From Phoronis australis (lineage: Eukaryota > Animalia > Phoronida), in NCBI GenBank assembly GCA_002633005.1, contig NMRA01000907.1, positions 32,226-96,225 on the forward strand: 64,000 nt of DNA, read 5' to 3'. The translations under genes were made by a program, and so were the position numbers. Shown here piece after piece: positions 3,401 to 60,924 of this stretch. The first letter of the stretch is position 1. Each line of letters opens with the position of its first letter. The notes below the pieces were generated by a model. That model saw only the letters and a program-made list of their open reading frames with translations. It was not told the DNA's origin and did not search any database.

Positions 3401-3466
3401 GATGAAGAACTAGAGAAAGATGGCGTGGAGAGCCCTGAAACAACTGTTATTCATAGATTAGTGTTC

Positions 3467-7506: not shown

Positions 7507-7507
7507 N

Positions 7508-7947: not shown

Positions 7948-7949
7948 AC

Positions 7950-18401: not shown

Positions 18402-18574
18402 TTGAGTGTGCCCTTATCGAATCCAGTGGCTTGCTATGCGACCGCTGGTGGATGCGCTGTCTCAACTAAGTTCGTGTCTCATATTTCATGTCATAGGTAT
18501 TGTTAGACCGAAAATTTATAAAAACTTTAATTGATGCTCTTTTTTCAAACAGGGTTCTTCAGTTTGCTCTCAAC

Positions 18575-34869: not shown

Positions 34870-35187
34870 TCACAGTACACGATCTGGCCTTCCATGGAAA
34901 ATGTCCGCACACAAGTCAGGATAATCGTTTAGAAAGAAGTCATAAATGAACTCCATTCTCACTCCCTGTTCAATCTCTTTAAGATGAAATTCCCCAGGCG
35001 CCACCCTTATGTCATGTCCGCACGTGTGCATGACAGCCACGCACGCCTCCTGTTGGTGGTTAGCTACAAAGCCTGGGCTTCCTGAGCTGCCACTGCCGAA
35101 TTTTGAACTGGATTGGTAAAGCGCTCGCCGTCTGTCTGTTATGTTTTTGAACATGTCTTGTTTATATTTCCTGTGTAGCCCAAGGAG
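34870..35187 (-). CDS. Last exon: protease catalytic Ser (FGSGSSGSPGF) and C-terminus
   Basis: Acceptor ttacAG; LYQSSSKFGSGSSGSPGF...VAVMHTCG...IEQGVRMEFI parallels the FAM111 pattern GSSGSPVF/VAMH/IEFG; stop TGA. Confidence 0.92.
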   Translation of the reverse strand, partial: LLGLHRKYKQDMFKNITDRRRALYQSSSKFGSGSSGSPGFVANHQQEACVAVMHTCGHDIRVAPGEFHLKEIEQGVRMEFIYDFFLNDYPDLCADIFHGRPDRVL

Positions 35188-38100
35188 CTGTAAGTATAAC
35201 AATGTGACTTCAGTGGTAAATGACAGGTAAAAACATGTAACGTGTCGGTCACTGATGTAAGCAAACTATGACTGTCGATCATTGAAATAGTACAATATTC
35301 TAGTTACAAAAAAGGTTTAATTTTAAGAGTGTATTTAAAAGGCATAAAATACATAACTTGTTTCCAAGAGTTTAACTCATATGTCTATGCTCCCTTTTCC
35401 CTGAACTCAAGAGAACAACTGGCATGTTTAAATTCAGTGACATGGGTATTTTAAAAGCATTCAGCTGACAAATGTCCAGTAATCCTACCGTTATAAACCT
35501 CACCCTACAATGATCTATATAACTAGCCGAATTGGTTTTATTTAAAAATGGACAAAAGTATATTGTAGGTCACATTCCATTCATTCCGAATGACATAGTA
35601 AATGTTATCGTACCTTTTCTATATTTTGTGGCGATGTACAATCATAGTCAATAGTACACATCGTATCCAAAACTTTCCCATCGCCAACTGGATGTCCAAC
35701 AAAATGAATATATCGCTGTGCATCAATAGTTGCAAACTCAGTAATAGGCGGCGGAAGTGGGCATTCACTGATCTTCAGACATCGATTGAAGGCTCTTGGA
35801 AGTGATGCCTCGAAATTGAGGTCTAAGACGGCCACATCGAGGTCCTCGCAATGAGCCAATATGGCGCGGATAGGCGCTGCAACGACACCGTCCACTTGAC
35901 GAGGCTTGTTAAAATGAAACAGAGCCACGTTATGCTCGGCTGTAAAATACACATTAGAAATGACCAACAAACAGTTCAGAGCTTATAGGTTGTTACATAC
36001 TACCTAAACAAGCAGACTACAACCAAAAGATTCTGTTACCCGATGATACATGACAGAAGCTGTTAGGGTGTAGTGTAACACTGTTTCATTTGTAATGGAA
36101 GTTGAAAAGTACAAATTGAAACATTGCTTTCTTGTCTCTTAGCTTCTAGTGGCTGTCAATTGTAAGGTGTATCAACTCATAATGCATTATAGAACGCACT
36201 AAATGACTCCAATTAATGTGCTATATAGATTATCCCACATACATAGAAATACTACTGTCATACCCTATCCAGAATTCATTTCATCTGGGAATGTCCCGGA
36301 TGAGATGTGTTGTTGTTGTGTGCTTTGGCTTGTTGTTACATGACGTCATATCCATGTCAAGCCTACCTGCGCCTGTACAGCGATAGGTGATCTGTGAGGC
36401 TTAACAGCTAGTTCAGTTTTATTTCATATTGAATTGATAAGAACTTTCAGTTTTTGAGATGTTCAAGTTAAAAAGATGAATAATTCAATTATAAATGTTA
36501 GTCGGGAACTTTGAAACAATCTCTCCGGAAGTATAAAAGTTGATCAGTTTTGCTAGCAGCAGTTTGTCGCTTTAGCTTCGATGAATTTCGTAGTTTTCTA
36601 GGTCTATTTTCCTGTATTAGGTTATGAAACAGAACTAGTATTAGAAATGTTTCCCCTTGATGCCTTGATGGCAGAACTGGAAAGTAACGGTGGACACTGT
36701 GCCGTGTTTGAGATATCAGGAAAGTATGTCAAAAAGCAGATTTTACGCTACCAGGAGAGCCGAGGAACGCTGCGAGCGCACGCTTGTGTCGGTAAAAAGG
36801 TGCATGTTCGATGTTAGGTATCATTTCTTTGTGATTATCTTAGCTCTCAGTGTACAGTAGATATACTGCACATAAATGCTTCCATAAGAAAACGTTTTCG
36901 TTCGATTTGACTGTGCTGTAATATTGTTTTTCAACCCACTCATGGAATATAAAAGGCACCAAATGACTCCACTTGAACGGCAAAAACCTGTTGGTCCTTT
37001 AAACAAGGAAAGGAATCAACAATTAGTCGAACATGGCGGACTTCAAAGCTAGTCGACTGGACTGCTAAACCAAATTGCCGGTGATCAAACCTGTTGTTCG
37101 AACTTCAAAACGGAATGGTTTCACCCAAAAAATAGTTGACTGGACCAAAAACAGGATGGCCGGTCCCATAACCAGTTGTCCAGAGATCAAACAGGACGGC
37201 TGACTTCCTCAGAGACTCCCATTTAATTCGTTCTCAAGGATTCAAGTGATATCTACTGTCTGTGCACCCGCCAGCCCGTTTTAGGTGTGTTCAACCATTT
37301 TTTGTGTGCCGCCATCTGGTTTTAAGGTCCAACCACCAGGTTAGAACAAGGGGAATTTTATTTTTCAGTCCTGCCAACTTGTTTCAAAGTCCAGGCAAGT
37401 GGTTTTGAAGTCTGGGCAAAGGGTTTTGAAGTCTGGACAAGTGGGTTTGAAGACTGGGCAAGTGGTTTTGAAGACTGGGCAAGTGGTTTTGAAGTCTGGG
37501 CAAGTGGTTTTTAAGTCCGGGCAAGTGATTTTGTCCGACCATTTGTTGATTCCCCTCCTTGTTGAAGCTGCTTTCGCGCCCTGTTATCGAGTTAGATAAA
37601 AACGAAAATAGAATTAGGCATTGTATTCCCGTGAAGTCAGTGTCGTCAGATTATTTGCCGTGATAAAATTCTTTCTACTACAACGGAAAATATGGAAACC
37701 ATTAGTGACCCAAGAAAACGCTTCCAACGTTATTAGAGTTGGCCTTATAGACATCACACAGACTGGGTGGGCAGAACACATGGAGCTCACCTTGTCAACG
37801 TATGACGCCATATTGGAAAGTGTGACACAAAACAAAAATGTCGCAAAACACTGAGACACCTACAACATCAGTCAGGAAATATCCGGGGCTCGATGTGTTA
37901 CATGTATGCCTGCAGCCAAAGAGTTGAGTGTATTGGTCCTACCATTGAATCATAGCTTTTTGGTTCTGCCATAGAGTTTAGTGGTGCTGCTTAGGTTCTG
38001 TCACCGTAGTTTAACCAGTGTAACCATGCGTTGTTTCCACCCAAGTCTAGTCTTGTTGACTGAGATCATATCAAATCAATTTAAAAAATAATTATTGGCC

Positions 38101-41100
38101 AGCATATGATGTTATCGAATGTTGATGCTGTTTGTTAATTGTACTTAAGTAAATATGTGGTATTAATGACAATGATATGTTTTTACTTGTACTGAAAAAC
38201 AGAATCTGCATCATGATGCCCGCCACTCATCCAAATCAGTACATCTACGTGAGTAACATATTTTTATTGAAATACGTACTGCCTTAAAAACTCTTTCTGA
38301 ATATATATTCCCTAATCAGATATTTTTATGTTGTATAAAGGTAAATCCACAGTCTGTACTTATGTCGCACTACTTTGCTTGCCAACAGTTGTTTTGTGAC
38401 TTAAAAACTGCGTAAAAAGTGCAAAGTAACAAAACTAGCATACCTGCACAACTGAGCTGTGCACACGACTTATATTCAATTACGAAGAATTTTAAACTCG
38501 AAACCGAGTGGAAATATTTCCATCGGAGCCGGTGTTCATTAAACAATGACCCAGTGAAAAAAATGACTATGGGTATTTTTTTCAAGGGGTATAAATTCAA
38601 TGTGAAGAATTTGCCACTCGTGAATATTACGATCAAAAGTTGGAATATGGTACCGGTAAGCATGGCGCTACTAACACATAGTGTACACACAAGGTAATGC
38701 AACACAGTCACTGAATGTCCTGGCGCTCACTTAAGACTGGCCTTCTAGTTAGATAAGTTATAACGTTGTTTATAAAAGTACCTGAACCCCAATAGTTTTA
38801 AAACAACAGATCGCTATACAGCTCTACATTTTTATTTGTGAAAAAAATGCCTTAATTCAAACAATTGCAAGTTCGTACTTACGTTCATGACTAAGTTCTT
38901 TTAATACATGACAGTTTGTCATGATGTAAGTTGGACCAACACGGAACCCAGATCCCACTCCTGTCCCGTCTGCTCTTGCCAATAACGCTACAGATTGGAG
39001 AGCGTCAGAAAGAGACTTGTGTAAGTCCGCCCACATCACGTTCTTACCAGGAGCATGGAATTGTGTTGTTGAACCGGTTAATTGTGTCGGAGACTGTAGG
39101 AGTGGAAAGTAATCTGGAAAATATAGAGCTGGTTCATGTAGGAACTCTTACGCTGAAACTGGAATAGGAACAGGAATTATTTTATCAAATTTGACTCCTT
39201 CCTTAAACTTTACAATTACCTGACTGCCTGGTAACCACCTCCAGTATGTCCAAGTCGCCGTCGTTTCTCTTGTTTACAGTAATTGTGACCTGTCCCTTAC
39301 CGACGGCGATGGTTTGGCCTTTTGAGTAGACATAACGTTCGAGCATTGCACAAAACTGCTTTTCAGACGGGGCAGCCCTCGCCCCCAGACATTGATCGGA
39401 TGAACCCGCAGTCGCATGGGGTCTCATTTCACCACCACACTGGACACTTTGCTCCATTTTTTTGGATCGACGAGTCTGTTCCATGTGTTGCTGGAGGTGA
39501 CATTGTTAAATGTAAGTAATTGGCTATTTCACATGGATTGTAATCAATACACCTCAAAAGCTTTAAACAACATGCATCCCCAAGCACTACCTCAGGAAGT
39601 AAGTTTTTCACATGAAACCTCGTCAACTGAACTTCAAGGCCGCATGCGCAGTCGTGCAACTAGGTTTGAGTGTAGCAGTGGCCTCAGGTAACTCTCACCG
39701 AGTCGAAAGTTAACGAACTGAATTAGTTCTCGATGGTTCCCTGCGTGTCCGCAAGGGGGAAGAGAACTGCAGGTATTATTTAACAGTCCTCGGTAAAATT
39801 GATACACCTGGGTATTTGCCTTACACCTAAGTTAGTCTGGACGCAAGCTACGGAAACTTTGTCTCAGAAAGCACAGAAAGCAATTTTTTCAATTAAACGT
39901 TTCCAGTCAAAATGTGGACGACTTTCACCGAAAATTGCACTCGAGATTTTTGATAAAATGGTATACCCAATCATTAGCTATGGAAGTGAGATTTGGGGAT
40001 TTAAAGAATACACTAGTATCGAGCGCGTTCAATTGAAATTCTGTAAGCAACTGCTGGGTGTTGGAAGTAACTGTCCAAATCATGCTGTCCTGGGAGAACT
40101 GGGAAGGTATCCAATTTATGTAAAGCTGTTTGTTAAACTGATCAAGTATTGGTTTAAATTGTTAAAAATGCCAGCACATCGAAATCCAAAATCTGTCTAT
40201 GACAAGCTTGTCACATTGGATGAGGCTAGTAGGAAGAATTGGGCTTCATCTGTTAGGAATTTGCTGCAAAGGTATGGTTTTGATTTGGTATGGTACAATC
40301 AGGGAGTTGGCTGCGAAGCATCGTTTCTTGTCATTTTTGAGCAACGAATTAAAGATTGTTTTTTACAAGACTGGAGCTTTGCTGTGGAGAATAGCTCAAA
40401 ACTTAATACGTATTTCTAATTTAAAATTAATTTTGAAATGGAATCCTATCTGTTGCGTGATATTCCATATATCTTTTTAGCAGCTATGGCTAAATTACGT
40501 TTCTCCAACCACAACTTGATGATAGAGAAAGGTAGACATACTCTCGTGGACCAAAAAATACCGTGTGTGTTGTTTCTGTGTGTCCCTAATTGAAGATGAA
40601 TACCATTTTATATGTGTTTGTAAAATGTACTGGTCTCTGAGAACTGCATTTATACCCGAGTGGTGCTGGCGAGAACCAAATCAACATAAATTTGTAAAAC
40701 TTATAAAAATGTCGGAGCCCATTGCTCAGATTAATCTAATGAAATTTGTATTTCACGCCACTGCTCTCAGGGAAAAACTGCTCAGCGTTATCCTGTAAAT
40801 TTCATGTAACATGTGGGCCAAGGCCTTAAATGTTGAAATACATGAATTTATTTATAAAAGTATTATGTAGTGATATTGAATATAACCGACACCCTACATT
40901 GTATTCACCGTGGCCCCGACTTTCGTCAGCGTTTTGTTTCGTTCCCTTTTCATTATAAATCCGTCATGAGGTGTGTGGTCTAGCTCCGTCTGGCGATTTT
41001 TCAAGTTACTAAACTAAACGCCTGAACCCTGTGCATAGGGTTTTAGATGTGGCATGGTTTACTAAAACGCTTATTTTTACGTGTATACATGAGATTTTAT

Positions 41101-44100
41101 TTTGGCGGTTTGATCGTAGCAATATTAATGAGGGCCAATATTGACAACATGGTCGAGATATCAACAAAAACAACCAGAGTTATTAACAATGGTGAAATCC
41201 TCTGTGTACATGTATAACAAGTATCATAAAATGTTTTATTACTGTACCTTAAGGAGTTTCTTTATTGATTCCTCTTTACAGACATCGTAAGCAGTTCTTC
41301 CATCCTGTAAAATAGGTAATTAAATTCATATTAAAATTGACATTAAGTTTAAGTCAAAACTCCACTACACAAAACACGTGACCTCCATGCATATGTATTA
41401 TAGATACAGGTAAAGTTCATACATTTTGCCGTTTGTGCGAGATTTCATAGTTTGGAAGTTGAGACAACTCTTAGGCTTAAGTGAAAAATAAACTTAAAAC
41501 TGTTTCTTGGAGAGTCCAGGTTGTGAACCACTATATGTTCATGTCATCCATTTTGATGAGTTGTAAACAAAGCGTATGAATCTAATAAGGATGTTGAAAA
41601 TTGATTATCAGCTACAGAGTGATGTCATCAACTGGACCCAACACACACTCCGCAGCTTTTTCTGTTGTGTTTAAAAATATTTTTCAAGAGGCTCAACTCT
41701 CCTTCGCGTGGAGGATAGTTGGGCACCTAGTCAAGGAGAGTTGAGCTCACGGTTTCCTACAGCTTTGTATAACATGCACGATTCTTAATGAGCAGTTATG
41801 AAGAAAAAATGCTCTGCTGCTTTTGTCTTTAGCTTTTCACCCTTGAGTGTAAATGAAACTTGCTGAGTAACATTAACTAATTATATTTTGCTATATACGT
41901 CACAAAAAGTGACTAAACTTTTATCTTTCCGATTTCGTTTATAGTTGTAAATCTTACAGATACATGTAGCATAGTTTGCCAACAAATTCTTCCAAAACTG
42001 GCCAAGAATTGTATGGTGACACATGGCATACCTCCCCGCCAACTGGTGGTTTAGTAGCTGAGACAGCTATATTACAAACCCAGCACAATTAATGGGAAAA
42101 AATAATGTGGCAATATTTTACAATAATGTTAGGTTGCAAGTCACAATTCTTGCCTTATTTTGAAAATTCCAAAACCTGACCACGTACACATTTTACGAAC
42201 TATTCCGCTGCTATTTAAGCACTGTCAAAACGAACATTTTTGTCGCCACCAGTGTGTTAGTGATGAGTCTAATTATCTAGTGACTGATAACAACATCAGG
42301 CTGTGGCGTCCAGGCCGATGTAACTGCCTGCAACTGCATTGCGTCTTTGATCTGATCTTCAGACTTTACGTTACATACACCGGTCGAGTCGCCCAGCCTC
42401 GCCCGGTGAAAATAATCTGTTCACTTGGGATTCCTTTCACAAAGAAACTGCATCATCCGTTGTGCAATCGCATTAAAAGTAAGGCACCGGGTTACACAAC
42501 TTTGAGAGAAATAATTGAAATGCCAAGTAATTTGTCAAGGCTTTTTCTTGTCAAGTAAACATTCCAATCACTTAATTATCACCATTTATGAAAATGGTTG
42601 ACTTTTTCACNGTGTGTGTGTGTATATGTATCAATCCGTGGCAGAAATATACACAGTTCTGTAGTAGGGTTAAAAATAAACCACAGGGTTATAACACTGA
42701 AAATTGTTAAATAACCACTGCACAACAGAGAAACATAACTTAAAAACCATAAACAGACTTTCTAAATACAGGCTTGCACAGTCATGATTAAAAACCTGTG
42801 CATTTTATAATAATTGAAAAGAGAAAATCTAAACTTGTGCCTGGTGTAGGCGACTGTACGGCGTTGTTGGTCTGTTCTTAGTTTGTGTAGCCATAATACG
42901 ATGAATGTTTTCAGTCAGCCAGTTGGGTCATAGTATAAGAATCAATAAATCCATTACTGGACTTTCGGTACGTGGAGATGGCTACGTTGCGTCCTCCTCT
43001 CGAGGACTTCATCAGGCCACTGAGTTGTCACGTGAATTGTCATGTGATCTGTCGTACAGTTTCCGCGGGATTCTCTCCAGTGCCCTATCCCATGTCCTAG
43101 GTAAGTGAAAACCGCCTGTCTATTGAGGCTAGGATTCTCAATATTCTTGTAGATAGCTTCTTTGACCCCTCTCCAAAACCAATTCTCTTCTCTATCCAGG
43201 ATCTTCACATCTTGCATGGCGAAAGAGTGTTCTGTGGAATCCATGTGACTTAAGACTGCAGAACCATAGCAGTCCCCATAACTGGACCTCCGATGCTGGT
43301 TGAAACGACTTTTCAGGGCTTGTTTGGTTTCCCCAATATATGCTGCTCCACATCCCGGTTCCGAGCATGAAATGCCATACACCACATTTGATGTTTTCTC
43401 TTTGCTGGTTTTGTCTTTCACATTTAACAATTCACTCCTTATGGTGTTAAGAGCAATGTCGTGTCCTCTCATATGTGATTTGATCTGGTCAGCGATCCCT
43501 GGCACAAAAGGCAATGTTATCCTGATGTTTCCCCTATTATCAGGCTGCGTGTTCTGAGGCCTGACTCTGTCATGGTTTGCCTTGTGGAATGACCAGTTCG
43601 GGTAGCCACATCTTTTCAACACTGTTCTGTTGTGTTCTATTTCAAAATCAATGTCCTGCTCAGTGTTGGAGATGGTTCTCGCTCGATAGGCCAACGTTCT
43701 AATCACGCCTAGTTTGTGAATCAACGGGTGATTGGAGTCAAACGGAAGATAGTAGTCCATGTGAGTGGGCTTCCTATAAACCTTGGTCTTGAAATGCTTG
43801 TCTGTAACAGTCACTAAACAATCCAGGAACGGTAAAGTTTTTAGTCACATGAATTCCACAGAACACTCTTTCGCCATGCAAGATGTGAAGATCCTGGATA
43901 GAGAAGAGAATTGGTTTCGGAGAGGGGTCAAAGAAGCTATCTACGAGAGAATTGAGAATCCTAGCCTCAATAAACAGGGGGGCTAGGGTTTCACTTACCG
44001 AGGACATGGGATAGGGCGCTGAAGAGAATCCCGCGGAAACTGTACGACAGATCACATGACAAGTCACGTGACAACTCAGTGGCCTGATGAAGTCCTCGAG

Positions 44101-47100
44101 AGGAGGACGCAACGTAGCCATCTCCGCGTACTGTATGTCCAGTAATAGATTTATTGATACTTATACTTTGTGTAGCAATGTTACGATCAAGCCAGTGACT
44201 TTTATTTTACTGAGTGCTCTGGGAAGGTACATGCAATAAGGAAACGACTGCTTGTATAGGTTCACGTAAGAGGTAGATCATTTTTGATGAGATATATATG
44301 TTAAATGAATAATTCTTCGAACTCGTTGTTCATTTAAAACACATTTATTGCAGTATGAATTAAAGACGGAGTACAACACTCTCTACGCAGTCACAGCGGC
44401 CTTTAATGATTTGAAGCTTCACAACCGCTGCGTGTCCAACCTCTGACGCCATGTGTAGCGGTGTGTCACCCCACTACAGCAAGTGAACAAACATGCCGGG
44501 GGGATTGTTGGTCAGCATTACATATACAATAGCGAAATGCGTGGCTCAACAGGGCTTCACGTTTTATATTTTTCAAGTTCAAAACTTCACCATCAGTTGC
44601 ATATTGATGACGTGGGTGGATCCACAGTGTGTGACTACAACCTAACATTTAAACTAGCACACAACTTGAGCGACATTCCTTAAATGTTCGTCTGATGTGT
44701 TGTAGCCGCGCATTGAAAAGATAATTTAAATTATACCACAATATTAGCTTCGAATGGCAGATACAACCGTGAAGTAACCCATAAAGTTATCTCACTAGTG
44801 AGATAACATTTTGGCGGGAAACCGAGGCCGGGCCTCAACAGTTGCGAGCCGCGCAATAATCGCATGTTCAGCAAAGAGCATTACACCGACAATTATACTC
44901 TATGAAAAATAAGACGCATAATTTCCATAAAAACGATATTTTAATACAGTGAAATTTCTCTCTCGTGTTCTCTCACTTGTAAATCACCGACCTCCAATTT
45001 GAATGCAGGTGTCGTGTGGTCGGGATCCCTTGACTTGAGCATTATAGTCAGTTACTAGTGGTAACCTACTTTAGCAGACGATATATTCCCGGTCCAAGCT
45101 TAGCGTGATAAAATGTGTAGTAAGCTATAACAGTTGCTAAACCGTAATTTACAGATTAACTTTCTTTCTATTTTGTTTTATTTTTCAATTAGTTTTGAGT
45201 AAAAACATTATTTTACAAAAATATCTCGTCTTTTCTTAAAAGGTCACGACCTGCGACCCTGGGCCTCTGACATAGAAAGTAGTTACAAAGCCGAGGCGAG
45301 TCGAGAAAGGTAGATTGATTCATTGCATTGTTTCTCGTTCAGTATGTGGTATAAATAGATTATTACATGTTCTCAGTCGTTATCCCCCTTATATAGAGCC
45401 CTCGTGGATTTTGTAGAATTATCACCCTCGGAGCTAACGCCCCTCGGGCGATAATTCTCCAAAATCAACTCGGGCTGTAGATAACGGGGGATAACGACTT
45501 CGCCATGTAATAATCTATATATATGACAACTTGATGTTATACATAACAACAGAGCGACATTGATTTAGTGAGCACTGTGGAAATGCAAGTAAATAACAAA
45601 CTCATTGTACAACTCCATGTCACCTGAAAACCGTTTTTAATTACTTCAAAATCACGTGCTCGTCACGTCACGTGCACGTCACGAGGAGTGTAAGGAAATG
45701 TCAAGTTTACAATAAAATCATTTATCCTGATGAATTTATTAAAACACCGAATGATTCAGACTTGTCACATCTTGTATGTTGATCATCGTTGTGTAAACAA
45801 CTAGTTCAACTAAACACCCTGTGTGTCATTAATTACCTCATCGCGGACACTCACGTTGGCCCCGTGTTGGAGGAGACTCTGCACGACGGCTGTACGACCC
45901 CACAATGATGCCCGGTGCAGCAGTGTCCGGCCATCCTATGTAATATATAATGGAGATGTGTGAATGGACGACCAACGTTTAGAGCTAATTAACATACACG
46001 GGAGAAAGTGAACTTGTAAGGTGACATCAATGAAACATCACTGACCCCTCTAAGGTGCTAATACTTGTAATGATGTCAACAGAGAAATGTTAAGTTTAAG
46101 AACAAAACAACAGAACCTGGTTAGTGTTTCGTTTCTTCTTACTGGACGGTAACACGGGTAGTAATTGTGCGCTGTAACGTGTTGAACAACCTCCAGTGTA
46201 ACGTATGGTTTGGTCTAACGAATTAGGAGTATTTTAATTAAGTTATGGGACATTTTACATGTACATGTAAGTCACGATGCATTATCTCTTCCAGTCTACA
46301 CAGCTTTAGCGGTTCATGAACAGAAAGCAGACGACATTTAATTTGACATTGTTTAGGAACATTAAATTGTGAAAATATCAACAAAATTTGTGCCTGTCAG
46401 TTTTAAACATTGTTTATGCAAACAACTAGATCAACCAAATAACCTGTGTGTCATTAATTACCTGACCACGGACATCCACTGTGGCGCTGTGTTCAACTAG
46501 ACACTCCACTATCTGTGTATGACCATACTGTGCTGCCCAGTGCAGCGGTGTCTGGCCCGACTATGTAATATATAATGGAGATGTGTGAATGGACGATCAA
46601 CGTTTAGAGCTAATTAACATACACGGGGGAAAGTGAACTTGTAAGGAGGCATGAATGAAACATTACTGACCCCTCTAAGGTGCTAATACTTGTAATGATG
46701 TCAACAAGGAAATGTTAAGTTTAAGAACAAAACAACAGAACCTGGTTAGTGTTTCGTTTCTCCTTGCTGGACGAAAACACCGGTAGTAATTATGCGCTGT
46801 AACATGTTAGACAACCCCAGTGCAATGTATGTTTTTGTCTAACGAATTAGGAGTATTTTAATTAAGTTATGTGACATTTTACCTGTACATGAAAGCCACG
46901 CTGCATTATCTCTACAAGTCCACGCAGCTTTAGCGGTTCATGAACGGAAAGCAGACGACATTTATTTTGACATTGTTTAGAGGGAACAATAAATTGTGAA
47001 AAGATCAACAAAATTTGTCCCTCATCAGTTTTAAACATTGTTTGTGTAAACAAGTAGATCAACCCAATAACCTGTGTGTCATTAATTACCTTATCACAGA

Positions 47101-49694
47101 CATTCACTGTGGCGCTGTGTTCAACTATACACTTCACTATCTGTGTATGACCATACTCTGCTGCCCAGTGCAGCGGTGTCCGGCCCATCTATGTAATATA
47201 TAATGGAGATGTGTGAATGGACGATCAACGTTTAGAGCTAATTAACATACACGGGAGAAAGTGAACTTGTAAGGTGACATAAATGAAACATCAGTGACCC
47301 CTCTAAGATGCTAATACTTGTAATGATGTCAACAGGGAAATGTCAAGTGCAAGAACAAAACAACAGAACCTGGTTAGTGTTTCGTTTCTTCTTACTGGAC
47401 AATAACACGGGTAGTAATTGTGCGCTGTAACGGGTTGAACAACATCCAGTGTAATGTATGGTTTGGTCTAACGAATTAGGAGTATTTTAATTAAGTTATG
47501 TGACATTTTACCTGTACATGTAAGTCACGATGCATTGTCTCTACCAGTCTACACAGGTTTAATTAGCGGTTCATGAACAGAAAGCAGACGACATTTAATT
47601 TGACATTGTTTAGGAACATTAAATTGTGAAAATATCAACAAAATTTGTCCCTGTCAGTTTTAAAAATTGTTTATGCAAACAACTAGATCAACCAAATAAC
47701 CTGTGTGTCATTAATTACCTGATCACGGACATCCACTGTGGCGCTGTGTTCAAATAGACACTCCACTATCTGTGTATGACCACACAGTGCTGCACGGTGC
47801 AGCGGTGTCCAGCCCTCCTATGTAATATATAATGGAGATGTGTGAATGGACGATCAACGTTTAGAGCTAATTAACATACACGGGGGAAAGTGAACTTGTA
47901 AGGAGACATGAATGAAACATTACTGACCCCTCTAAGGTGCTAATACTTGTAATGATGTCAACAGGGAAATGTCAAGTTTAAGAACAAAACAACAGAACCT
48001 GGTTAGTGTATCGTTTCTTCTTACTGGACGGTAAAACGGGTAGTAATTGTGCGCTCTAACTTGTTCAACAACCTCCAGTGTAATGTATGGTTTGTTCTAA
48101 CGAATTAGGAGTATTATAATTAAGTTATGTGACATTTTACCTGCACATGTAAGTCACGATGCATTATCTCTACCAGTCTACACAGCTTTAGCTGTTCATG
48201 AACGGAAAGCAGACGACATTTAATTTGACAATGTTTAGGAACATTAAATTGTGAAAATATCAACAAAATTTGTCCCTGTCAGTCTTAAAGATTGTTTATG
48301 CAAACAACTAGATCAACCAAACAACCTGTGTGTCATTAATTACCTGATCACGGACATCCACTGTGGCGCTGTGTTGAACTAGACACTTCACTATCTGTGT
48401 ATAACCTAACTGTGCTGCGCAGTGCAGCGGTGTCCAGCCCTCCTATGTAATATATAATGGAGATGTGTGAATGGACGATCAACGTTTAGAGCTAATTAAC
48501 ATACACGGGGGAAAGTGAACTTGTAAGGAGACATGAATGAAACATTACTGACCCCTCTAAGGTGCTAATACTTGTAATGATGTCAACAGGGAAATGTTAA
48601 GTTTAAGAACAAAACAACAGAACCTGGTTAGTGTTTCGTTTCTCCTTGCTGGACGAAAACACCAGTAGTAATTATGCGCTGTAACATGTTAGACAACCCA
48701 GTGTAATGTATGTTTTAGTCTAACGAATTAGGAGTATTTTAATTAAGTTATGTGACATTTTACCTGTACAAGAAAGTCACGCTGCATTATCTCTACAAGT
48801 CCACGCAGCTTTAGCGGTTCATGAACGGAAAGCAGACGACATTTATTTTGACATTGTTTAGGGACATTAAATTGTGAAAATATCAACAAAATTTTGTCCC
48901 TGTCAGTTTTAAACATTGTTTATGCAAACAACTAGATCAACCCAAAAACATGTGTGTCATTAATTACCTTATCACAGACATTCACTGTGGCGCTGTGTTC
49001 AACTAGACACTCCACTGTCTGTGTACGACCCCACAGTGCTGCACAGTGCAGCGGTGTCAGGCCCTCCTATGTAATATATAATGGAGATGTGTGAATGGAC
49101 GATCAACGTTTAGAGCTAATTAACATACACGGGGAAAGTTAACTTGTAAGGTGACATTAATGAAACATCACTGACACATCTAAGACACTAAAATACCTGC
49201 AATGAGTTCAACTCAAGTTTTACAGGTGATTCGAAAACGTTGAAACAACAACAGAACATTTTGCAGACGTGGACTGCCAGAAGTTTGCTGAACGCCTCCA
49301 TAATTCACAGAGACCCCTCCAGGTTGTGTTTATACTGGCTTCCTATTTAATATAATGTTGTAATATTGAAAGGGCGATTGTCATTAAGAATAGAAAGGTA
49401 TCAACGTTGAGTCGGCAAAGATATTGTTGATAGGATTCAAATCTCAGTGCTTCTCAAGATGCATGTACCGCGTACAGAATGAAAAATACATGTCGAAGTC
49501 AGGAGAGATAAAATATGTATTTACACAAAACATATTTAGTTAAATTTTAGATAGCATACAGTGTTTGTAAAGTGGTCTGAATTAGTTTCTATTACCACGT
49601 CTTGCATGTCTACATCGGCCCCACCCTGTAACAATAACCTCGCCACCTCTGTGCTGCCCCGCCATGCTGCTTGGTGTAGTAGGGCCTTGCGGTC
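34870..49694 (-). CDS. Multi-exon gene: ankyrin-repeat array plus FAM111-like trypsin-fold serine protease (at least 13 exons, about 664 aa; start exon uncertain)
   Basis: Exons 49596-49694, 48968-49066, 48344-48442, 47719-47817, 47090-47188, 46462-46560, 45837-45935, 44375-44473, 41248-41304, 39220-39490, 38883-39113, 35614-35939, 34870-35187. All have AG/GT borders and compatible phases, giving one stop-free frame with the His/Asp/Ser triad. Confidence 0.85.
35614..35939 (-). CDS. Protease exon with catalytic Asp (EDLDVAVLDL) and HFVGHP motif
   Basis: Acceptor ttttacAG phase 1, donor AAG/GTacga phase 0; LDVAVL and VGHP.G..K..D.C are Trypsin_2/FAM111 motifs. Confidence 0.92.
37381..37533. 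repeat. 21-bp minisatellite, about 7 copies (gtggttttgaagtctgggcaa), intronic
   Basis: Tandem units visible directly. Confidence 0.9.
38883..39113 (-). CDS. Protease exon with catalytic His (GSGFRVGPTYIMTNCHV)
   Basis: Acceptor attttccAG phase 1, donor GTaagt phase 1, 231 nt open. Confidence 0.92.
39220..39490 (-). CDS. Linker exon (QHMEQTRR...VVTRQS)
   Basis: Acceptor cacctccAG phase 0, donor CAG/GTaatt phase 1; phases join the cap exon to the protease exon. Confidence 0.8.
39795..40850 (+). mobile_element. 5'-truncated non-LTR retrotransposon 3' end (RTE-X/L2-like; clade uncertain), intronic and antisense to the host gene
   Basis: YGSEIWG, IERVQLKFCK, AVLGELGRYP, IEKGR, IEDEYHF; one stop and one frameshift. 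Confidence 0.85.
41248..41304 (-). CDS. Ankyrin C-cap exon (DGRTAYDVCKEESIKKLLK)
   Basis: 57 nt, tttacAG and AAG/GTacag, phase 0-0; typical terminal partial ankyrin repeat. Confidence 0.85.
42978..43020 (-). ncRNA. Minimal type I hammerhead-ribozyme-like motif (variant core)
   Basis: tggc-CTGATGA-a-gtcctc(gagag)gaggac-GCAACGTA-gcca in the pLTR. Confidence 0.6.
44079..44121 (+). ncRNA. Minimal type I hammerhead-ribozyme-like motif, second copy
   Basis: Same motif in the inverted pLTR. Confidence 0.6.
44375..44473 (-). CDS. Ankyrin exon 8 (WGDTPLHMASEVGHAAVVKLQIIKGRCDCVESV), atypical 3' end
   Basis: Acceptor ctgtAG and TPLH motif; GT at exactly 99 nt, but the donor (GTactc) is weak. Confidence 0.65.
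45355..45518. mobile_element. About 164-bp fold-back (palindromic) MITE
   Basis: atagattattacatg...catgtaataatctat; the two halves are imperfect reverse complements along the whole length. Confidence 0.85.
45837..45935 (-). CDS. Ankyrin exon 7 (DGRTLLHRASLWGRTAVVQSLLQHGANVSVRDE)
   Basis: 99 nt, catAG and GTaatt, phase 0-0. Confidence 0.92.
46462..46560 (-). CDS. Ankyrin exon 6 (SGQTPLHWAAQYGHTQIVECLVEHSATVDVRGQ)
   Basis: 99 nt, catAG and GTaatt, phase 0-0. Confidence 0.93.
47090..47188 (-). CDS. Ankyrin exon 5 (MGRTPLHWAAEYGHTQIVKCIVEHSATVNVCDK)
   Basis: 99 nt, catAG and GTaatt, phase 0-0. Confidence 0.93.
47719..47817 (-). CDS. Ankyrin exon 4 (EGWTPLHRAALCGHTQIVECLFEHSATVDVRDQ)
   Basis: 99 nt, catAG and GTaatt, phase 0-0. 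Confidence 0.93.
48344..48442 (-). CDS. Ankyrin exon 3 (EGWTPLHCAAQLGYTQIVKCLVQHSATVDVRDQ)
   Basis: 99 nt, catAG and GTaatt, phase 0-0. Confidence 0.93.
48968..49066 (-). CDS. Ankyrin exon 2 (EGLTPLHCAALWGRTQTVECLVEHSATVNVCDK)
   Basis: 99 nt, catAG and GTaatt, phase 0-0. Confidence 0.93.
49596..49694 (-). CDS. Ankyrin exon 1 (DRKALLHQAAWRGSTEVARLLLQGGADVDMQDV)
   Basis: 99 nt, ttctacAG and GTaata, phase 0-0. Confidence 0.92.
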
Positions 49695-50694: not shown

Positions 50695-53510
50695 TNTTAC
50701 AAGGAAAAAATGGCGGCGTTCAGGACAAGTTCCTGAACTGATGAGCCGGAAATGTGGGTACGGAAATAACCGATGACAACCGGTAATCATACGCTCAGAG
50801 AGAAGGGTCAAATACTGTTAAAAAATCGCTTTTGGCAAGAAAGGCGAAAAGAATATAAAGAAAGGGTGTCGAAAATAAGAATTTATGTAGTAAGTATTTT
50901 CGGATACTAGAACCACATGGGCAGTTTGCAACAAGGACTTTAAAGATACCATGACCAATCTTATCAAAACTGATTGCATTTTTAGTTGTTTTTTTTGGCA
51001 CTCGTTTCGTCCTCTTTTCACGCGCAGGCCGTCTGCATGTTGTGTTTCGACATGGATATAATTTTCTATGTTGTTACTGAAAGTTTGAAACGATCGATTT
51101 TCATAATAATAAATTTAACAGAATCGTACAAGCACTGAGAAATAAAAGAAAAACATAAAAACGCAAGGCAACAAAATAAAAATACAAGTGCAAGACACGG
51201 ATAACATAAAAAGTCAAAGACTCATTTCCATTATGCCGCTAATTTGTCTTATCCAACATTTTGTTTTAGATCATGGTGATAAAAAGTAAAGGTTAAAAGT
51301 GAGGTGTCAAAGAACTCCATATGTAACGGAACGACTACGACAGCTTTTATGACAAGCAACCAAGGAGTAAAAAATAAAACATCTTCAGCATTAGCTTCTT
51401 TTAGATTCTTCATCACAAGCAGCTTATATTACGGTTACTTGGACAAAAATAGAAAAAGACTCACTGATACGTTGAAAATATGACGAGTAGTATTCAAATA
51501 ATGAACAATATCATAACAGTAAAACAGGATCAATCCCTAAAATAATAATAACATATCGTACACCAAAACATTTGTTTGGATGAAAACTATCTAAATAAAA
51601 ACTTCAGTAGTCATTAAAATTTCTCCCTCGTACAAAAAGTCCCGAATACGTCTAATAATAGAAAAGCTCTGGAAATCAGACATTCATTTTTACATTAACA
51701 CTGAAATAAAAACGACTCCTCATGATGAAGATCCAGCAAACGTCATTGTGGTCGTTTAGAGAAATATATATTATTCAGTTGGCAACGTATCATTGACGTT
51801 TAGAAGAGCTTAACTGACCAATCAGAACGCAGTATTCCTGACGCACCTTCGTCTGCGTTTCCAAGCCGCCATGGTACCCGACAAACAACACGTTGTCGGT
51901 AAAGCTTATTTTCGTCTATAGCTCAAGAAATTGTGCGATAAGAATGGTGAAACGGTGTTGAGATGGCGTGTGTAATTCTCACACAGTCGTTATACACCTC
52001 GAGAAGGATATCCCGTCACTTTTTGTGCATTCACTAAGCCGGAAAGTAATGTCGATTGTGCAAATGACGGATCAAACTGTGTGGACGGCCACACGAGCAG
52101 CTAAATATTAACTTGGCAATGTTGCTGGATTACTCGAAGGTTAAACACAAATATATTTGTTCCACATTTCAGTTTGTCTATCTGATTTTGGCTCTGGAGT
52201 TTCACTCGTCTGGGCGCCTTTGTCTCGGCATCTGCTGGACATCCCAGCACTAGTCTTGTCTCCGGAAATTGTTGTTTTTAAGGACACCTTGATTTTTCAT
52301 TCATTTTGACCTGTAATGGACATCGTTTTGTTTCGTAGCAGAGGTACGTTTTCTGTTAACTATATATCCGTAGGCTGGTGTTCAACTGAACTTCTCACCA
52401 AAATTGACAGATTCGATCGGTACAGGGAGGGGCACTAGGTTACTGAATCAAAGCCTCGTTCGAGCTGTTGTCATGAAAAAATAAACAGTTGAATTACTTT
52501 TTTTAGAACCTCTAGTATATACACTACGGCTGTAGAGTTAGGGAGAGTTCATTTTGTAGTTGGTTAAACATGATACTCGGATTTATGAAGCTTTAGAAAA
52601 TAATTTTAGCTATTTTTGTGAATGGCCATTTTTGCCAGTACACCAGGCTTGTCATCTTTTGTAACCATACCACGACTTAGTGATCATGCTACTTAAATGA
52701 AAGCTACCATTATGCAACGAAACAACAAAAAAATGGGAAGTTCATCAGAAGGTTGGCTTTACTTAAATGTCTTTATGATGCATTGAATTACGGCTAATTC
52801 CATGCATTAATTTAACTTAGACACAGCCCTAGACTTAGTGGAGCTAACTGCTTTCCTAGGACAAGACGAAAATGTGCCTGAGCTATGAACCCGATTTCTT
52901 TAATCAAAATATTACGCTCGAAGATTAGAAAAGTATAAACAAGGTTATCGACTCGACCTTACACGGAGAATCCCATCAGTTGCGATCTACACTGAACTTT
53001 TCATTTGGCGGAATTTAGCAGACGGCAGAATAATAAAGATATCGGCGAATCTTCATTTTGTTCGAAATATCCGGAAATATATGAAATCGTACAGATAATT
53101 CGACTTTAAGGTACATACCCAGCTTTACATTAACATATCGCATCAGAGGCCTTGTGTCAGTTTTAAAGTGAATTAAGGTGAATCCCGTGTGGGGTTCTTC
53201 GGATTTTCGCTGGCTCCGAAATACTTTTCCTCGAACACTTAATTCATCATTGTGGCCTTTACAAATTCCCAAATGATGAACGTACGATTCTCAACTGAAA
53301 AGCATCGCATGTTGTTTTTGTCAAAGTGTTTTCGGAAAGTGCAAAATACACTCATCAATTCCACCAGGAACGTGATTTAGCGACAGTGTATTTGCCTTTG
53401 ACATCTTGTTCGTTTGTTGGGTGTCACGTGACTTTTCGTAAAGGGGCGGAGCTTGCGATAGGTCAATTCTCGTTAAATGGCACACTTCAGAGTGTTGCAA
53501 AGAGTTCGAC

Positions 53511-56493
53511 CAAGGAGTGTAGTAGTATAGGAGAGTTCACTTGTGAGTTCGCTGTTACCGCTACTACTAGCGCCGCCAAGTGATGAACAAGCAACAGTCA
53601 ACCAGGAAGCGCCAAAACAATGGGGAAGGACGCATTATGCAGTGCGATAAATTGCACTAATTCATCCACGACAACCCCAGACGTGTCGTTTTTTAGGTTT
53701 TCTAAGTATCCGGAAAGGTAAGTATTATATGTTATTCAATAATATAATACATTGTCTTTCAGTTTGTGTGTTCTGTTCACAGTTGCAAGTCGATCGCACG
53801 TCCCGGTGCCACTGTCTGTTGTATGCAGTGTAGGCTAGGCCTACTGGTCAGCCGGCGGAAGGACTACTGATTAATGTGATCGTCAGCTTTTTGGATACTT
53901 GCAGTCCATGTATTCCAAATCAAAATGTCACTCTAACGATCGCAGGGATAATTTTAGGAAAGCATAGCCATGGCCATGGGTGAATATGAATCATCGGGGT
54001 GACACGGCCATGGCACAATCACAGCCACAGGGACTCAAGTTTTCATTAGTCAAGTTAGAGACATAACGTAGGATTGTCGTGAGGACTTGACAGGTCGCCT
54101 CATGGGTCTCACGCTCCACTGATTTATATACACTAGCTTGAAAAGGCTTTGCCCAGTTACACATTTTGTGTCATAAAACTGAGAGATAATCATACCTGCA
54201 GCTAATGCAGCTAGTAGAACTTGTCTCGTTTATCACATTGGTGTAGGCTCACAGAAGAACTGTGATTTTCTGTTGAGCCCAGACCGTCCGGAGTTGCACC
54301 ATATACCAACTCCGGACGGTCTCTCACGACGATTTAGCGTTATGGAATCTGTGGGTCTCGGTGAAAAGTTGTGCGGCCCCTTAAAATATCCGTGGATCGA
54401 CATTTGAGTCCTAGTTTTTTTTAGTTGACGCCAAGACGCTTTTGTCTCTATCACAATCACAGTATGACAGGACTTCTGTAGTGTAGTGTAGTTTAGTGTA
54501 GGCTACCAGTCTTCTGTGAACCTGGTGAGTATGAGGTTTGTTCCTGAGTCTCTCATTGGTTTCTGTTCAGGTGCAAGCACTGGGAGCCGACCTTATGAAT
54601 AGAGTGCATCCTACTTGTCCAAGAACTGCAACTTATGCTCTCATCACTTCGAGGAGTCCATGTTGATGAATGAAGAACAAGCTGGTATTGAATGCAGTGC
54701 CCGAGCAGTATTTGATGTCCCCAGTCCACCAAAAATGAAGACGTCAAAAAGTTCTACGGAAATTATGTTACAGCTGTGGAATAGGCTTTTTGCATTTCTG
54801 ATTATCGTCTCACAAAGCAAGTACTGGAACATCACGTGTAGAAAGGACAATTAGTCAAAATCTGGTTTTCGTATTTTACTAAGGTTGATCAGATTGAAAC
54901 AGTTTATGAATGGTTAGCCTGTGATTTGAAGAGAGCCAAAGTGAAACTGATGGGTCTTTTAGAGTCTGAATGGTGGGCTGACATTTTGTTAAACCCAAGC
55001 TATCCATATCATTTTGCTTCTCAATGACACTGAAACACCTCTGTGAGTAAATTAGTTATCAGCTTCAATGCATTTCGTTGGCAAAAAGAGCTGTTGTTTA
55101 CTAGTGAATAGAGAGTGAGAAGGTTGGTTAGATTTTCTTGTTGTATTGGTGTATGTGTTGCCTATTTTGTACGTTTTTGGAGATTGTGATTAATTTAAGC
55201 TCCAGTTGTGGCTAAGTAACAAATATGATCTTGTGGTCTAGCTTTAGCTTACCTGAAATATTTACTGTTATTGATAATATGAACAGTGGGTATAGAAAAT
55301 AAAAATTTTAGTTTTATCATCCATTAAAAGTCTTTTTAATTCAGTTTTGTATGAAGTTGTGTGGCTAGTGAATATTTTGATTGCTGTTCAGCACCTCTTA
55401 ACTTTTTTGTCATGACATTTTGAGCTTGGACTGGTTATGGTGGGGATATACTCAATGTGGGGGGGGCTCGAATTCCCGACGATGTAGACCTTTTGCTAAC
55501 AAGTGAGTGGGCGGACTAAAAAAAAAAAAACGGGGACCACCACTGTGAATTGCGCGTTTCCGTTTCTTTAGTGGACTTTTGTCCCATTTTCTCGGACTTT
55601 TTGTCTCGTTCAAGCCCCCCGAGCCCCCTGGGTGCGCGCGTGGGAGAGTGCAATCGAGTTTACCCTATGCTGGAATGTCCAAGAAATAATGGGATGTTCT
55701 AAAATTATATTACGATTTTGTGGTAGTGATGAATTGCTTTCTTCTTCTTACATGTGTAACACCCACTACACCAAACAATTATTCACATTGTTAGTATCCT
55801 GGTGCATTGAATAAGGAACACATGCGAAATTGGGTGGAGGTGAAACCAGCAGTGAGCTGGGAGCAACATGTTTGTCAATGGTCAGGGGAGCAACCAAAAT
55901 TTATGACAATGGGAATGGCTCAACACCCATGTGGCATACCCCATTGGTTTTTACCTGTTTAGCACTCCTCCCATGTAACCCCCCTGGGAGATGGTCAACA
56001 CCCATTTGGTGCCCACATGGTTTTTGCCTTGTACCCCCTTAGCTGTCACCTGTGGGGAATTACCCTCTGGAGCACCAGGAGCAATCATTCAAATTTTATT
56101 GTCCATGGAGGTATGAACTGTTATAAGGAAAGATAATTTGCCTTGTTAAGAACTCAAACATGAAACAAAACCATGACGGATTTTGAATGGAGCTTCACTG
56201 AAGAGATTAAAAACAAATACACTTTAATATTGATTAAAATACACATTTTCATTCTCATTCGATTATAAGTGGATGTTAGTTTACGTATTCTAACCATTTT
56301 CAATCACACAGTAATTTTATTGCACGTTGAACGTCATTAAAGTCTGAATTCATCAGTGTTTACATTGTTCGGACTGCGCTCCTAAGTAAGTATTGATTAT
56401 TCACCGCTTGGAGCGCTAGTGTTTCGACCGGTAACCATTGGCGGCGAATGGTAAAATGTCGGAGTGAACTCTCCTATACTCGTACACTCCTTG
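53511..56493 (+). mobile_element. P-element-like non-autonomous transposon with THAP remnant
   Basis: 31-bp TIRs caaggagtgtagtagtataggagagttcact and agtgaactctcctatactcgtacactccttg (2 mismatches); 7-bp TSD gttcgac on both sides; split THAP domain inside. Confidence 0.88.
53620..54735 (+). pseudogene. Two-exon THAP zinc-finger remnant (53620-53717, 54571 to about 54735)
   Basis: MGKDALCSAINCTN...SFFRFSKYPER/GTaag; cAG/CKHW...LCSHHFEESM...AVP..VFDVPSPP; exon 2 is frameshifted. Confidence 0.8.
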
Positions 56494-57399
56494 GTTCGAC
56501 TGTTCAAGCCCTAATTCTCATACGTAAAAATAGATGGCGCTGCCTACATACGAAGGCGCGTGAAAACTGTGCTGCTGAAATTTCTGCTATAAAATATCAC
56601 TTGTGCTGAAGACGGTTACTTCAAATGACGTCAGTTAAAGGAGGAGTGGATAGAGATTCCGTAGGTGATAAAACTGGGTGAGTTCATGTTTCAAAGTAGT
56701 TAACATAGAACATTCACTTGTCCTCAAGCGGCGAACGACCGTTGCGCAATTATGACGGACATTAAACCTATCCGCAGTGTATTACGTAACTGTCACAACC
56801 GTCAAAATAGTGTGTCAATTTTTGGCACCTGGGACACTTAAGCCCACAAGTTAATCGCCAGACCCAGTCTTTTGTCCGATGTCACGACGCAAATGCCAAT
56901 TATCTACCCCTCTGAATGAATACATTAATGTAAACCCTTAACATTATTATTAACGACGTCACCAACATATCGGTCTTAAGTTATCTGTTGCTAGAACAAC
57001 TTTCGAAAATTTAGGTGAATTTATCCCACCATGCTCGTCTAAACTAATCAAGCTAAAGACAAACCTTGGTTTAACAACAACGTCAAATGACAGATAATAA
57101 GCAAAACAAATCGATAACTTCAAAAATATAGCATATGCCATCTGAATACGAACAGTCCAGATCAATTGAAAAATGCCCAAGAGTCCGTTGCAAAAGTCGG
57201 ACGTTTGCTAGAAAACAATGATGTACATGTACATGTAAACTACAGCCTGAAAATGAAGGTACCGACCATGTAACAAATAAAGTAATTCAATTACATCTGT
57301 AAATATAAAAGATATCTCTCCTACAACTACTCATTTATTCAACAAAATTTTACTAACAATTTGAAAAATGGATTTCATATTTTATAATTAATTTCTAGA

Positions 57400-58500: not shown

Positions 58501-60924
58501 TCCGAATCCTAGAGGCTGTCGAAGATACATGCATGAAAGGCAAAATAATAGCATTCCATTTTTGTTTCTAACATTGGATCTGCTCATAACTATCCAATGA
58601 CGTCAGTGAGTGAAGTTGCCAATTTCCTCCCTAGCTGCATGGCTTCATACAAAAGTACAATATGTCTGCTACTCATATCACTCCGTCATAGTTTGACTGT
58701 AGTTTTTTACCAACATATTTGTGTTTACTAATGATATAAATTACAAAATCTACTTGAATATTGATAACATGGGTAGCTAAATGTGTACATATCATTATTA
58801 CTGTTTTACACTGTTTCTATGATAATTCATTTCTTCACTGTTTACCTGTTCCTCAGGTATGTTGTAAATGGGTATCTTATGTAATTACCTAATCTCATGA
58901 AATAAAAATAGTTTACCTTGTCGAACATATTTCTTTAGACTGTGTGTAAGAGGGGAGATGTCAAAAATATGTGGTGACAATGAAACGGTACAATCACTTT
59001 TACTATATACAAACATGTTGAACATTAACCTCGCTATCAATATTACAGTTCACGACTACACCACTTCTACTTTGGCTGGTCGTTGATAAAAAAGAGGAGT
59101 AACACAATCAAGATAACTACAAAACACGACGAGTAATATCAAAATAAGGTGAAAATACAAGGATAGAGTAATAGCATCAATCGGTAAAACAATAATAGAA
59201 TACTGTAGTGTAAAGCATTTTTTAAAACAACCTAAATATAATCTTTAAAACCTCATTGTTCATTATAAAATTATAACTCATGCAAAATCAAATGACTACG
59301 ACTTGATTTTTGAGTCCGCAATTTCAAAAACTCTAAAACCTCGGAAACCACAAAATAACAACTTGAATGGCCAATTAAACTAAACTTCGAACACTTGCCG
59401 CTAACTACAGTACGCATTGGGGGAATAACACCATAGATTCTTGTCTGTGCTCTTGGAAAAACAACGTTTAATGTTGTGCTTTTGTAGTCGTACATTCACT
59501 CAAAAGTCAACTGATATAAATTACCAGCCTCAATTGTTTCGCAATCCAACTCAAACAGGGTGAGAGCTCAACAGGAGGTGTGACCGAGACTATCAAATGG
59601 AACACTTTTTGCCTTTGGTAAACCGTCCGGATCAATTAAAGCGGCACTAAGCCCTTGCATCAAGTCAAAAACAAGTTTTGATTTAGGACACTTACTATTA
59701 CTTACTTAGTTGACTGCAGACCTGTATCATTTATGCTATATTTTGCCAAAAGTAGGTGGAGGGAGTTGTGTTTCTGTCCAGTCCTCACTTAGTAAAAGTA
59801 CCCCACGCGTTGCGATATACATGTAACTGTGAGCCAAAATCCGACGTTTAGAAATCCAACCTTTTTGGAACTAAATCGTTATGTTTTAAAATTTCGATTT
59901 AGGGTTTAATTAGACTTTGTATTTAATCAAAAAGCAACATAAGTTTTTTTCAATAGAACATCTATGAATTCGTTTTCTCTGCATGCGCAAATTTCACAAA
60001 AGCGATCAGATTAAGAAATGCAGTTTTTATCTCAATACTGCCGTAATTCAAGAAATACATATGAGGGTCACTTACGTCAAACCCAACAACAAAGGAATGT
60101 GTTAGACTTGGACATTTTTTGTGGTTGTAATTAACAGGCAACGAATCGATGAAATTGACTAATCTTATATGCCATGACAATGCAATGGTTAACATTTTAG
60201 ATTATTCAACAAAAAGTCATTTAATAACGGTTTCACAGAAACGTTTGTTTCCAAATTCGCTTCGGATTAGCGGTGTGTTCATTTGTGCATACTTACTGCG
60301 TAGAGTTGTTGGTTGACGTCCCAACCGACGTTTATAAAGCGCCGTACAATTGCACAATGGTTATGAACCACGGCTTCTGTAACCTGAACATAAGAACAAT
60401 TAAATATGGATTACACAGGTACATCACACACTGTAAATATACTATCAATATAGGGTCATACAACTGTTCCATATTTGCTAGTGCTCCCAACATTATTTCA
60501 ACATTCCCGCAATCACGAAATTATCTTGTGCAGATCTAGATGAGGATTGTTCCGTAAAAAGTGACAATTTCGACGCATTTCAAGGACACTACATTATTTT
60601 GCGGCAGTGAAATTTCCAGTCAGTTTACTCATACATTTTTTCACTGCCCACTCAGTAAGCAGAGCTTTCCTAGACACTCGAACAATACCCAGATATTCAC
60701 AACGCTCTTCCCGAATTTCCTAAAGTTTTTGATGATCTTCAAGTCTTTTCTTAAAAAGTACAACAAATTTAATTCCACTAATAACGTGGCTCTATTCGAA
60801 AACGTTATTTAGTTTCAGTTTCATATTGGGGTCATTTATTACTTAAAATGGCACAGCTTAGTTCGTAATTCATAAAATACCTTATTTGTACTCCATATCT
60901 GAAGAACATGCAATCACTCCTCAT

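Follow-up and report, generated by a model that had tools for sequence, protein, structure and literature searches.

Why do the ankyrin exons of a single gene, copied one after another together with their introns, come to differ chiefly in the residues that would touch a ligand? The question is raised by a 64,000-nt stretch of the Phoronis australis genome (contig NMRA01000907.1; hereafter the window, whose positions are used for all coordinates below). A reading made from the sequence alone had claimed that these exons differ almost only by amino-acid changes at binding-surface positions, and proposed concerted evolution plus diversifying selection, as in the variable repeats of fungal NLRs.

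The ankyrin exon array

On the minus strand of the window lie six ankyrin exons, R1 to R6, each 99 nt long, in phase 0 and with AG/GT splice ends:

48968..49066 (-), R1, hypervariable ankyrin exon (splice ends, codon comparison, Pfam Ank)
48344..48442 (-), R2, hypervariable ankyrin exon (splice ends, codon comparison)
47719..47817 (-), R3, hypervariable ankyrin exon and reference for RNA reads (splice ends, codon comparison)
47090..47188 (-), R4, hypervariable ankyrin exon whose 3' end and downstream intron hold variants common to R1
46462..46560 (-), R5, hypervariable ankyrin exon (codon comparison; PDB matches)
45837..45935 (-), R6, chimeric ankyrin exon with codons 1-15 of the array type and codons 16-33 diverged
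45789..49212 (-), tandem array of ~625-nt exon-plus-intron units, with a partial unit at either edge

Exon and intron have been copied together: introns included, identity to the R3 unit is 90-95%. Among R1-R5 identity is 67-79% in protein and 86-91% in DNA. We scanned two array exons against Pfam, and both passed the Ank (PF00023) cut-off of 21.1 bits (R1 36, R6 34.3), as did the flanking exons E2 (30.9) and E9 (24.5) described below; a PDB sequence search with R5 matched ankyrins and DARPins. R6 lies within the span of the sequence-only reading but went unmentioned there. Pairwise against R1-R5 it shows 5.7-8 synonymous changes, almost all of them in codons 16-33, and its letters absent from R1-R5 number 4 in codons 1-15 and 17 in codons 16-33. 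No inverted intronic spare exons were found within the window, and a search of metagenome contigs for an exact 32-nt intron pattern gave 0 matches.

Selection at binding-surface codons

The residue states reported earlier, for exons 2-6 of that reading (R1-R5 here), are all correct. From R1 to R5, codon 1 reads E/E/E/M/S, codon 3 L/W/W/R/Q, codon 8 C/C/R/W/W, codons 11-12 LW/QL/LC/EY/QY and codon 14 R/Y/H/H/H; codons 19, 29, 31 and 33 have two states, and the one synonymous difference, at codon 8, is the sole same-residue codon pair among R1-R5. To these we add single-copy amino-acid changes at codons 17, 21, 22, 23 and 32. Means over the ten R1-R5 pairs are pN 0.148, pS 0.021 and intron p-distance 0.064. 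The claim of almost exclusively amino-acid change survives as a concentration at surface codons, but the lack of synonymous change is by itself not significant, with 0/13 four-fold sites segregating (p 0.39 vs intron). The signal is the clustering at surface codons rather than missing synonymous change.

DARPin libraries supply an independent definition of the surface. The library described in PMC3308923 (Table 2) randomises positions 2, 3, 5, 10, 13 and 14, and earlier libraries also 26 and 33. The proposed correspondence with DARPins is borne out with an offset of +2 (exon codon n is DARPin position n+2), so that positions 2, 3, 5, 10, 13, 14, 26 and 33 are exon codons 33, 1, 3, 8, 11, 12, 24 and 31. 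Among the sites named as most variable, codons 1, 3, 8, 11 and 12 are indeed positions randomised in DARPins; codon 14 falls outside the DARPin positions, transitions separate its states, and its posterior is 0.6. We took codons 1, 3, 8, 11, 12, 31 and 33 as the surface set, leaving out the invariant codon 24 (DARPin 26).

At first and second codon positions, 10/14 surface columns segregate, vs 69/524 ungapped intron columns (p 1.7e-6), while the other codons do not differ from the intron (9/52, p 0.40). The excess holds after dropping any one repeat, and the published DARPin position sets tested singly give 9/12 (p 3e-6) and 9/14 (p 2e-5). Variable codons could also arise with no selection at all, through relaxed constraint, through CpG hot spots or through short stretches copied from older paralogues, an account that suits three features of the exons: their 21/99 variable columns do no more than match the intron's most variable stretch of 99 columns (21), 8 of those 21 columns lie in CpG context, and framework codons have an omega near 1. 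Yet the excess remains outside CpG context (surface 5/7 vs intron 61/493, p 6e-4), and simulated rate scatter yields p at most 0.003.

Because dS is near zero, omega estimated from the exons alone is unbounded, and we therefore relied on a joint codon model with the intron as neutral clock and two alternative trees. Intron-calibrated omega at surface codons is 14.5 or 12.3 depending on the tree, with omega = 1 rejected at p < 1e-13 and omega <= 6 rejected by the likelihood profile, for n=5 repeats and under codon models that assume one tree for units that are mosaic. At the other, framework codons omega is 1.3 or 1.1 by tree, no different from 1; the framework has no measurable conservation. 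On both trees M2a is favoured over M1a (p about 1e-6). Target-binding positions thus change about 10 times faster than the adjoining intron DNA. The comparison of dN with intron divergence, suggested earlier as a way to overturn the claim, left it standing: surface codons exceed the intron. We conclude that diversifying selection on the ankyrin binding positions, backed by three tests and by multi-allelic sites in the RNA of three samples (see below), is real and statistically firm.

Exchange among repeat units

Exchange among repeats was read from shared variants, without a formal recombination test. R1 and R4 have 3 variants in common at the exon 3' end and a further 14 in the intron downstream; sites at the exon 5' end group differently (R2+R3, R1+R3, R2+R4). 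Since these groupings conflict along the unit, the units are mosaic; together with the unit identity given above, this bears out the earlier proposal of concerted evolution.

Just before the exon, the final 67 columns of the intron are nearly uniform, with 1/67 variable vs 68/457 in the rest (p 8e-4), and over the six copies none of the four-fold sites in codons 1-15 vary (0/8). The codons that vary most are therefore embedded in the DNA that varies least, a pattern that speaks against tracts imported from old paralogues, because such tracts would bring synonymous changes with them, as in the 3' half of R6; the uniformity itself may stem from frequent conversion or from splicing constraint. 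With invariant four-fold sites between the variable codons, and a gene model that has no stop or frameshift, we regard an origin of the pattern without selection as largely refuted and very improbable.

The array probably leads into a predicted protease

What is the array part of? Read outward from the repeats, the minus strand carries the following further exons:

60297..60383 (-), E1, probable N-cap, ankyrin-like, 87 nt, phase 0-0 (splice ends, frame; weak Ank_3 match, E 0.12)
49596..49694 (-), E2, older, diverged ankyrin, 99 nt (Pfam Ank, E 2.8e-7)
44375..44473 (-), E9, diverged ankyrin, phase 0-0 (Pfam Ank, E 3e-5, residues 2-25)
41248..41304 (-), E10, C-cap-like partial ankyrin (by eye; RNA joint 39490/41248)
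39220..39490 (-), E11, 90-residue linker (RNA joints)
38883..39113 (-), E12, protease, predicted catalytic His, TNCH (RNA joints, weak profile matches)
35614..35939 (-), E13, protease, predicted catalytic Asp, LDVAVL (motif, spacing, RNA joints 35939/38883 and 35187/35614)
34870..35187 (-), E14, last coding exon, predicted catalytic Ser, GSSGSP, and stop (motif, RNA)

The 14-exon model, from 60383 to 34870 on the minus strand, is an open frame of 693 residues without internal stop or frameshift; reading the gene both ways did not yield a start-codon exon. The gene is predicted to run in frame from the ankyrin array into a trypsin-like protease, an effector that the sequence-only reading missed. 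E2 shares 44-54/99 nt with R1-R6. E9 has lost the ankyrin pattern in its last third (an atypical 3' half) and has a weak donor, and may be a decaying, skipped exon.

The protease assignment draws on motifs and weak matches. E12 matches Pfam Trypsin_2 in a single-exon search (E 0.0023, 19.1 bits, below the cut-off of 27.6), has a weak NCBIfam MarP/HtrA match and falls with Atlas serine-protease clusters (0.91), and E14 falls with Atlas Trypsin_2/C3/S7 clusters (0.93-0.95). The His, Asp and Ser motifs stand in that order at model residues 468-471, 513-518 and 621-626, a spacing of 43 and 109. The linker exon E11 has no Pfam match, RHIM included. PDB sequence searches with E12, E13 and E14 singly gave unrelated matches (E 0.6-1.2) or none, and homologue searches with single protease exons gave 0/145 candidates, 0/188, and 0 in 1.84 billion representatives (E 0.001), which is weak evidence.

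No membrane-spanning stretch is present in the model (maximum hydropathy 1.1), which lacks its start exon and with it any signal peptide or further domain that this exon may encode. Neither the 14-exon model nor the scanned open stretches, a set without the missing 5' exon(s) and 26 stretches beyond 58 kb, gave a NACHT/NB-ARC NTPase. An NLR or STAND receptor was accordingly rejected, its central NTPase being absent from the model and the scanned stretches. The earlier likeness to fungal NLRs holds for the mode of evolution and fails for the gene, which has no NTPase and ends in the trypsin-like protease.

Other features of the window

Mobile sequence lies within and beside the gene. In the E9-E10 intron, 42929-44170 has a GIY-YIG match (E 0.0015) and inverted arms of 185 and 146 nt; we take this element to be Penelope-like. 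Between E10 and E11, a 211-residue open stretch (39784-40416, plus strand) looks by eye like a LINE-type retroelement fragment, has no Pfam/NCBIfam match, and is covered by RNA reads on both strands. The E1-E2 intron contains a pair of 42-nt inverted repeats 2.9 kb apart (53500-53541 and 56463-56504), possibly the ends of a DNA transposon. A sub-threshold Pfam BRCT_2 match at 2898-3446 (minus strand) is probably spurious, because the plus-strand frame at 2920-3312 resembles, by eye, a fragment of retroelement ORF1.

Two intronless rhodopsin-family GPCR frames occupy 18497-19609 (plus strand) and 28710-29693 (minus strand), the first with only distant database relatives (26-36% identical). A direct duplication at 6691-8610 (~1.26-1.29 kb spacing, 95-98% identical) has no Pfam match in the stretches scanned. 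Perfect tandem repeats of 18 nt (5.9 copies) and 21 nt (7 copies) lie at 15809-15915 and 37387-37533.

Splicing and related transcripts in RNA

Raw reads came from RNA runs labelled as the same species (samples X6, X7 and X8 among them), and contigs from sample X5. Four RNA joints, all GT-AG and on the expected strand (39490/41248, 39113/39220, 35939/38883 and 35187/35614), are splicing from the ankyrin C-cap exon through the protease exons. Reads on R3 have joints that jump back 99 nt, which is repeat spliced to repeat. Among the RNA joints covered or listed there were none for R6-E9-E10 or E1-E2-R1; we therefore infer the full-length fusion, including the link of E1 to E2, from strand, phase and order. 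X5 contigs match the protease-side exons of the window closely, with 1 difference/243 nt, 0/118 and 2/271.

At 80% likeness, R3 drew 448 reads from X6, 372 from X7 and 938 from X8. Most are less than 90% alike (372/448, 302/372 and 770/938, respectively) and none is 99% alike, and in about 80-90% of the reads codons 21, 22, 25 and 26 bear linked framework differences, of which three are synonymous. Most R3 reads therefore stem from related genes, and variation in them mixes alleles and paralogues. Among the differences listed (40 of 59, 39 of them in the exon), all 11 sites with at least three letters (11/11) fall in codons 1, 3, 8, 11, 12 and 33. Many letters at these multi-letter sites are absent from the window's repeats, with up to four letters per site. 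In 109 reads of X6 and 76 of X7, the match stops at codon 15, leaving loose ends at 47773; R6 likewise departs from the array type after this codon. X5 also has new letters at codons 8, 11 and 12, which hint at allelic variation, paralogues being inseparable in the reads.

Up to four letters per site, at hypervariable codons within near-invariant DNA, is also what a targeted mutator or somatic conversion acting within the individual might leave behind. The RNA changes are, however, of all base types without single-base bias, and X6 and X7 have nearly the same letter shares, X8 different ones, the near-equality being what a germline repertoire would give; at position 47809, in reads that mix paralogues, the share by sample is 0/269, 0/223 and 63/545. 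Selection with conversion suffices for the data, and we consider diversification within the individual extremely improbable.

The protease exons of related RNA change as well, with an amino-acid change in 14/21 codons among the rows listed. Such change in paralogous protease exons would suit ankyrins that serve as substrate adaptors, or as decoys evading inhibitors, of a housekeeping or stress protease whose paralogues have diversified for host substrates, and PDZ or UBL modules are described as regulating related proteases (PMC9798293). Against this, an omega above 10 among repeats that belong to one gene and have a neutral divergence of ~6% speaks for a target that moves, while host substrates would be expected to evolve slowly. 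We think the adaptor role improbable.

Comparison with known systems

In mode of evolution the gene parallels the fungal NLRs. In Podospora, five positions on the concave face of NLR ankyrins are described as positively selected (PMC4986451), and repeat exchange is reported along with the occurrence of such NLRs in animals (PMC13449251). Like Podospora Pa_3_8560, the Phoronis gene has closely similar repeats, a few selected concave helix or hairpin positions and repeat exchange (PMC4986451, PMC13449251); unlike fungal NLRs, it has no NACHT/NB-ARC, bears a C-terminal protease effector, occurs in an animal, and has each repeat as its own exon copied with its intron. Highly conserved repeats are given as rare in animals, at 0.8% (PMC4986451). 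Of the features of receptors with high internal conservation, we found positive selection on the ligand face and repeat exchange, whereas the 67-79% protein identity of the Phoronis repeats lies below the 85% over 100 residues used in that source (PMC4986451).

One repeat per exon under selection is known from brown-algal LRR receptors (PMC3341825, PMC11378527). With the brown-algal ROCO LRR and NB-ARC-TPR genes the Phoronis gene shares one repeat per equal-length, same-phase exon and a selected ligand face (PMC3341825, PMC11378527); it differs in having ankyrin in place of LRR or TPR and a protease in place of GTPase or ATPase, and no inverted intronic spare exons were found in the window.

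FAM111 proteases offer a parallel on the effector side. FAM111A is described as antiviral, and marine-invertebrate members as lacking the UBL (PMC9798293). The predicted Phoronis protein has in common with them a C-terminal domain of putative Trypsin_2 type, the His-Asp-Ser order and a predicted intracellular location; the triad spacing is 43 and 109 in the Phoronis model vs 54 and 102 in FAM111A (PMC9798293), and the N-terminal hypervariable ankyrin array sets the Phoronis gene apart. Searches with single protease exons gave no FAM111 sequence match. Bacterial gasdermin systems include proteases, mostly caspase-like, fused to LRR, TPR or WD40 (10.1101/2021.06.07.447441), and the Phoronis gene resembles them in joining a repeat sensor to a protease, with a proposed coupling of recognition to cleavage (10.1101/2021.06.07.447441). 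Scans of 141 + 13 open stretches of the window gave no gasdermin.

Like DARPin libraries, the array varies positions 2, 3, 5, 10, 13, 14 and 33 on a fixed frame (PMC3308923); unlike them it is natural, keeps position 26 invariant and varies at position 16 (codon 14). Further general background is given in PMC8195603, PMC5100051 and PMC8683736. A literature search of openly readable papers, without their supplements, turned up no description of an animal gene that joins a repeat array of this kind to a protease, and database annotations may already list the ankyrin-protease architecture. The evolutionary regime is already known from fungi and algae; the NTPase-free ankyrin-protease architecture in an animal appears to be new.

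A proposed sensor-effector

We suggest, as the somewhat favoured reading, that the exons encode the variable binding domain of an expressed ankyrin gene with a predicted protease, likely an intracellular immune sensor-effector whose surface has been diversified. Unequal crossing-over or gene conversion would copy and swap whole exon-plus-intron units, and selection would retain novel residues on the beta-turn and in helix 1 of the repeats. Because the exons are phase 0, repeats could be gained, lost or skipped with the frame intact. On binding a fast-changing foreign target, the array would position or activate the attached protease, which would then cleave either the target or a cell-death effector of the host. 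We hold this account of target, activation and immune role to be rather probable, though by a modest degree.

Selection might instead act on a target of the animal's own kind, in allorecognition, gamete recognition or conflict with selfish elements, and not on microbes. Cell-surface recognition proteins have membrane stretches, and the gene model has none; moreover, many related transcripts suggest a gene family and not one locus. Fungal allorecognition genes are described as evolving under the same regime (PMC13449251), and an own-kind target keeps some plausibility, if an unlikely one.

The sensor-effector reading can be extended, tentatively and with more chance of being wrong than right, to a natural DARPin library held in the germline: a gene family would swap one ankyrin cassette, selection would randomise its binding codons, and each array would be wired to a protease without NLR machinery, yielding intracellular immune proteases that are specific to their targets.

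In the Phoronis array evolution hits the positions that protein engineers randomise. The intron that accompanies each repeat is a built-in neutral clock for selection and conversion, of a kind that intron-free arrays do not have. If the sensor-effector reading is true, the gene would represent a new receptor-effector design in the innate immunity of animals, with a protease attached directly to a diversified ankyrin binder, and one that arose independently of fungal NLRs and of the exon-shuffling receptors of algae.
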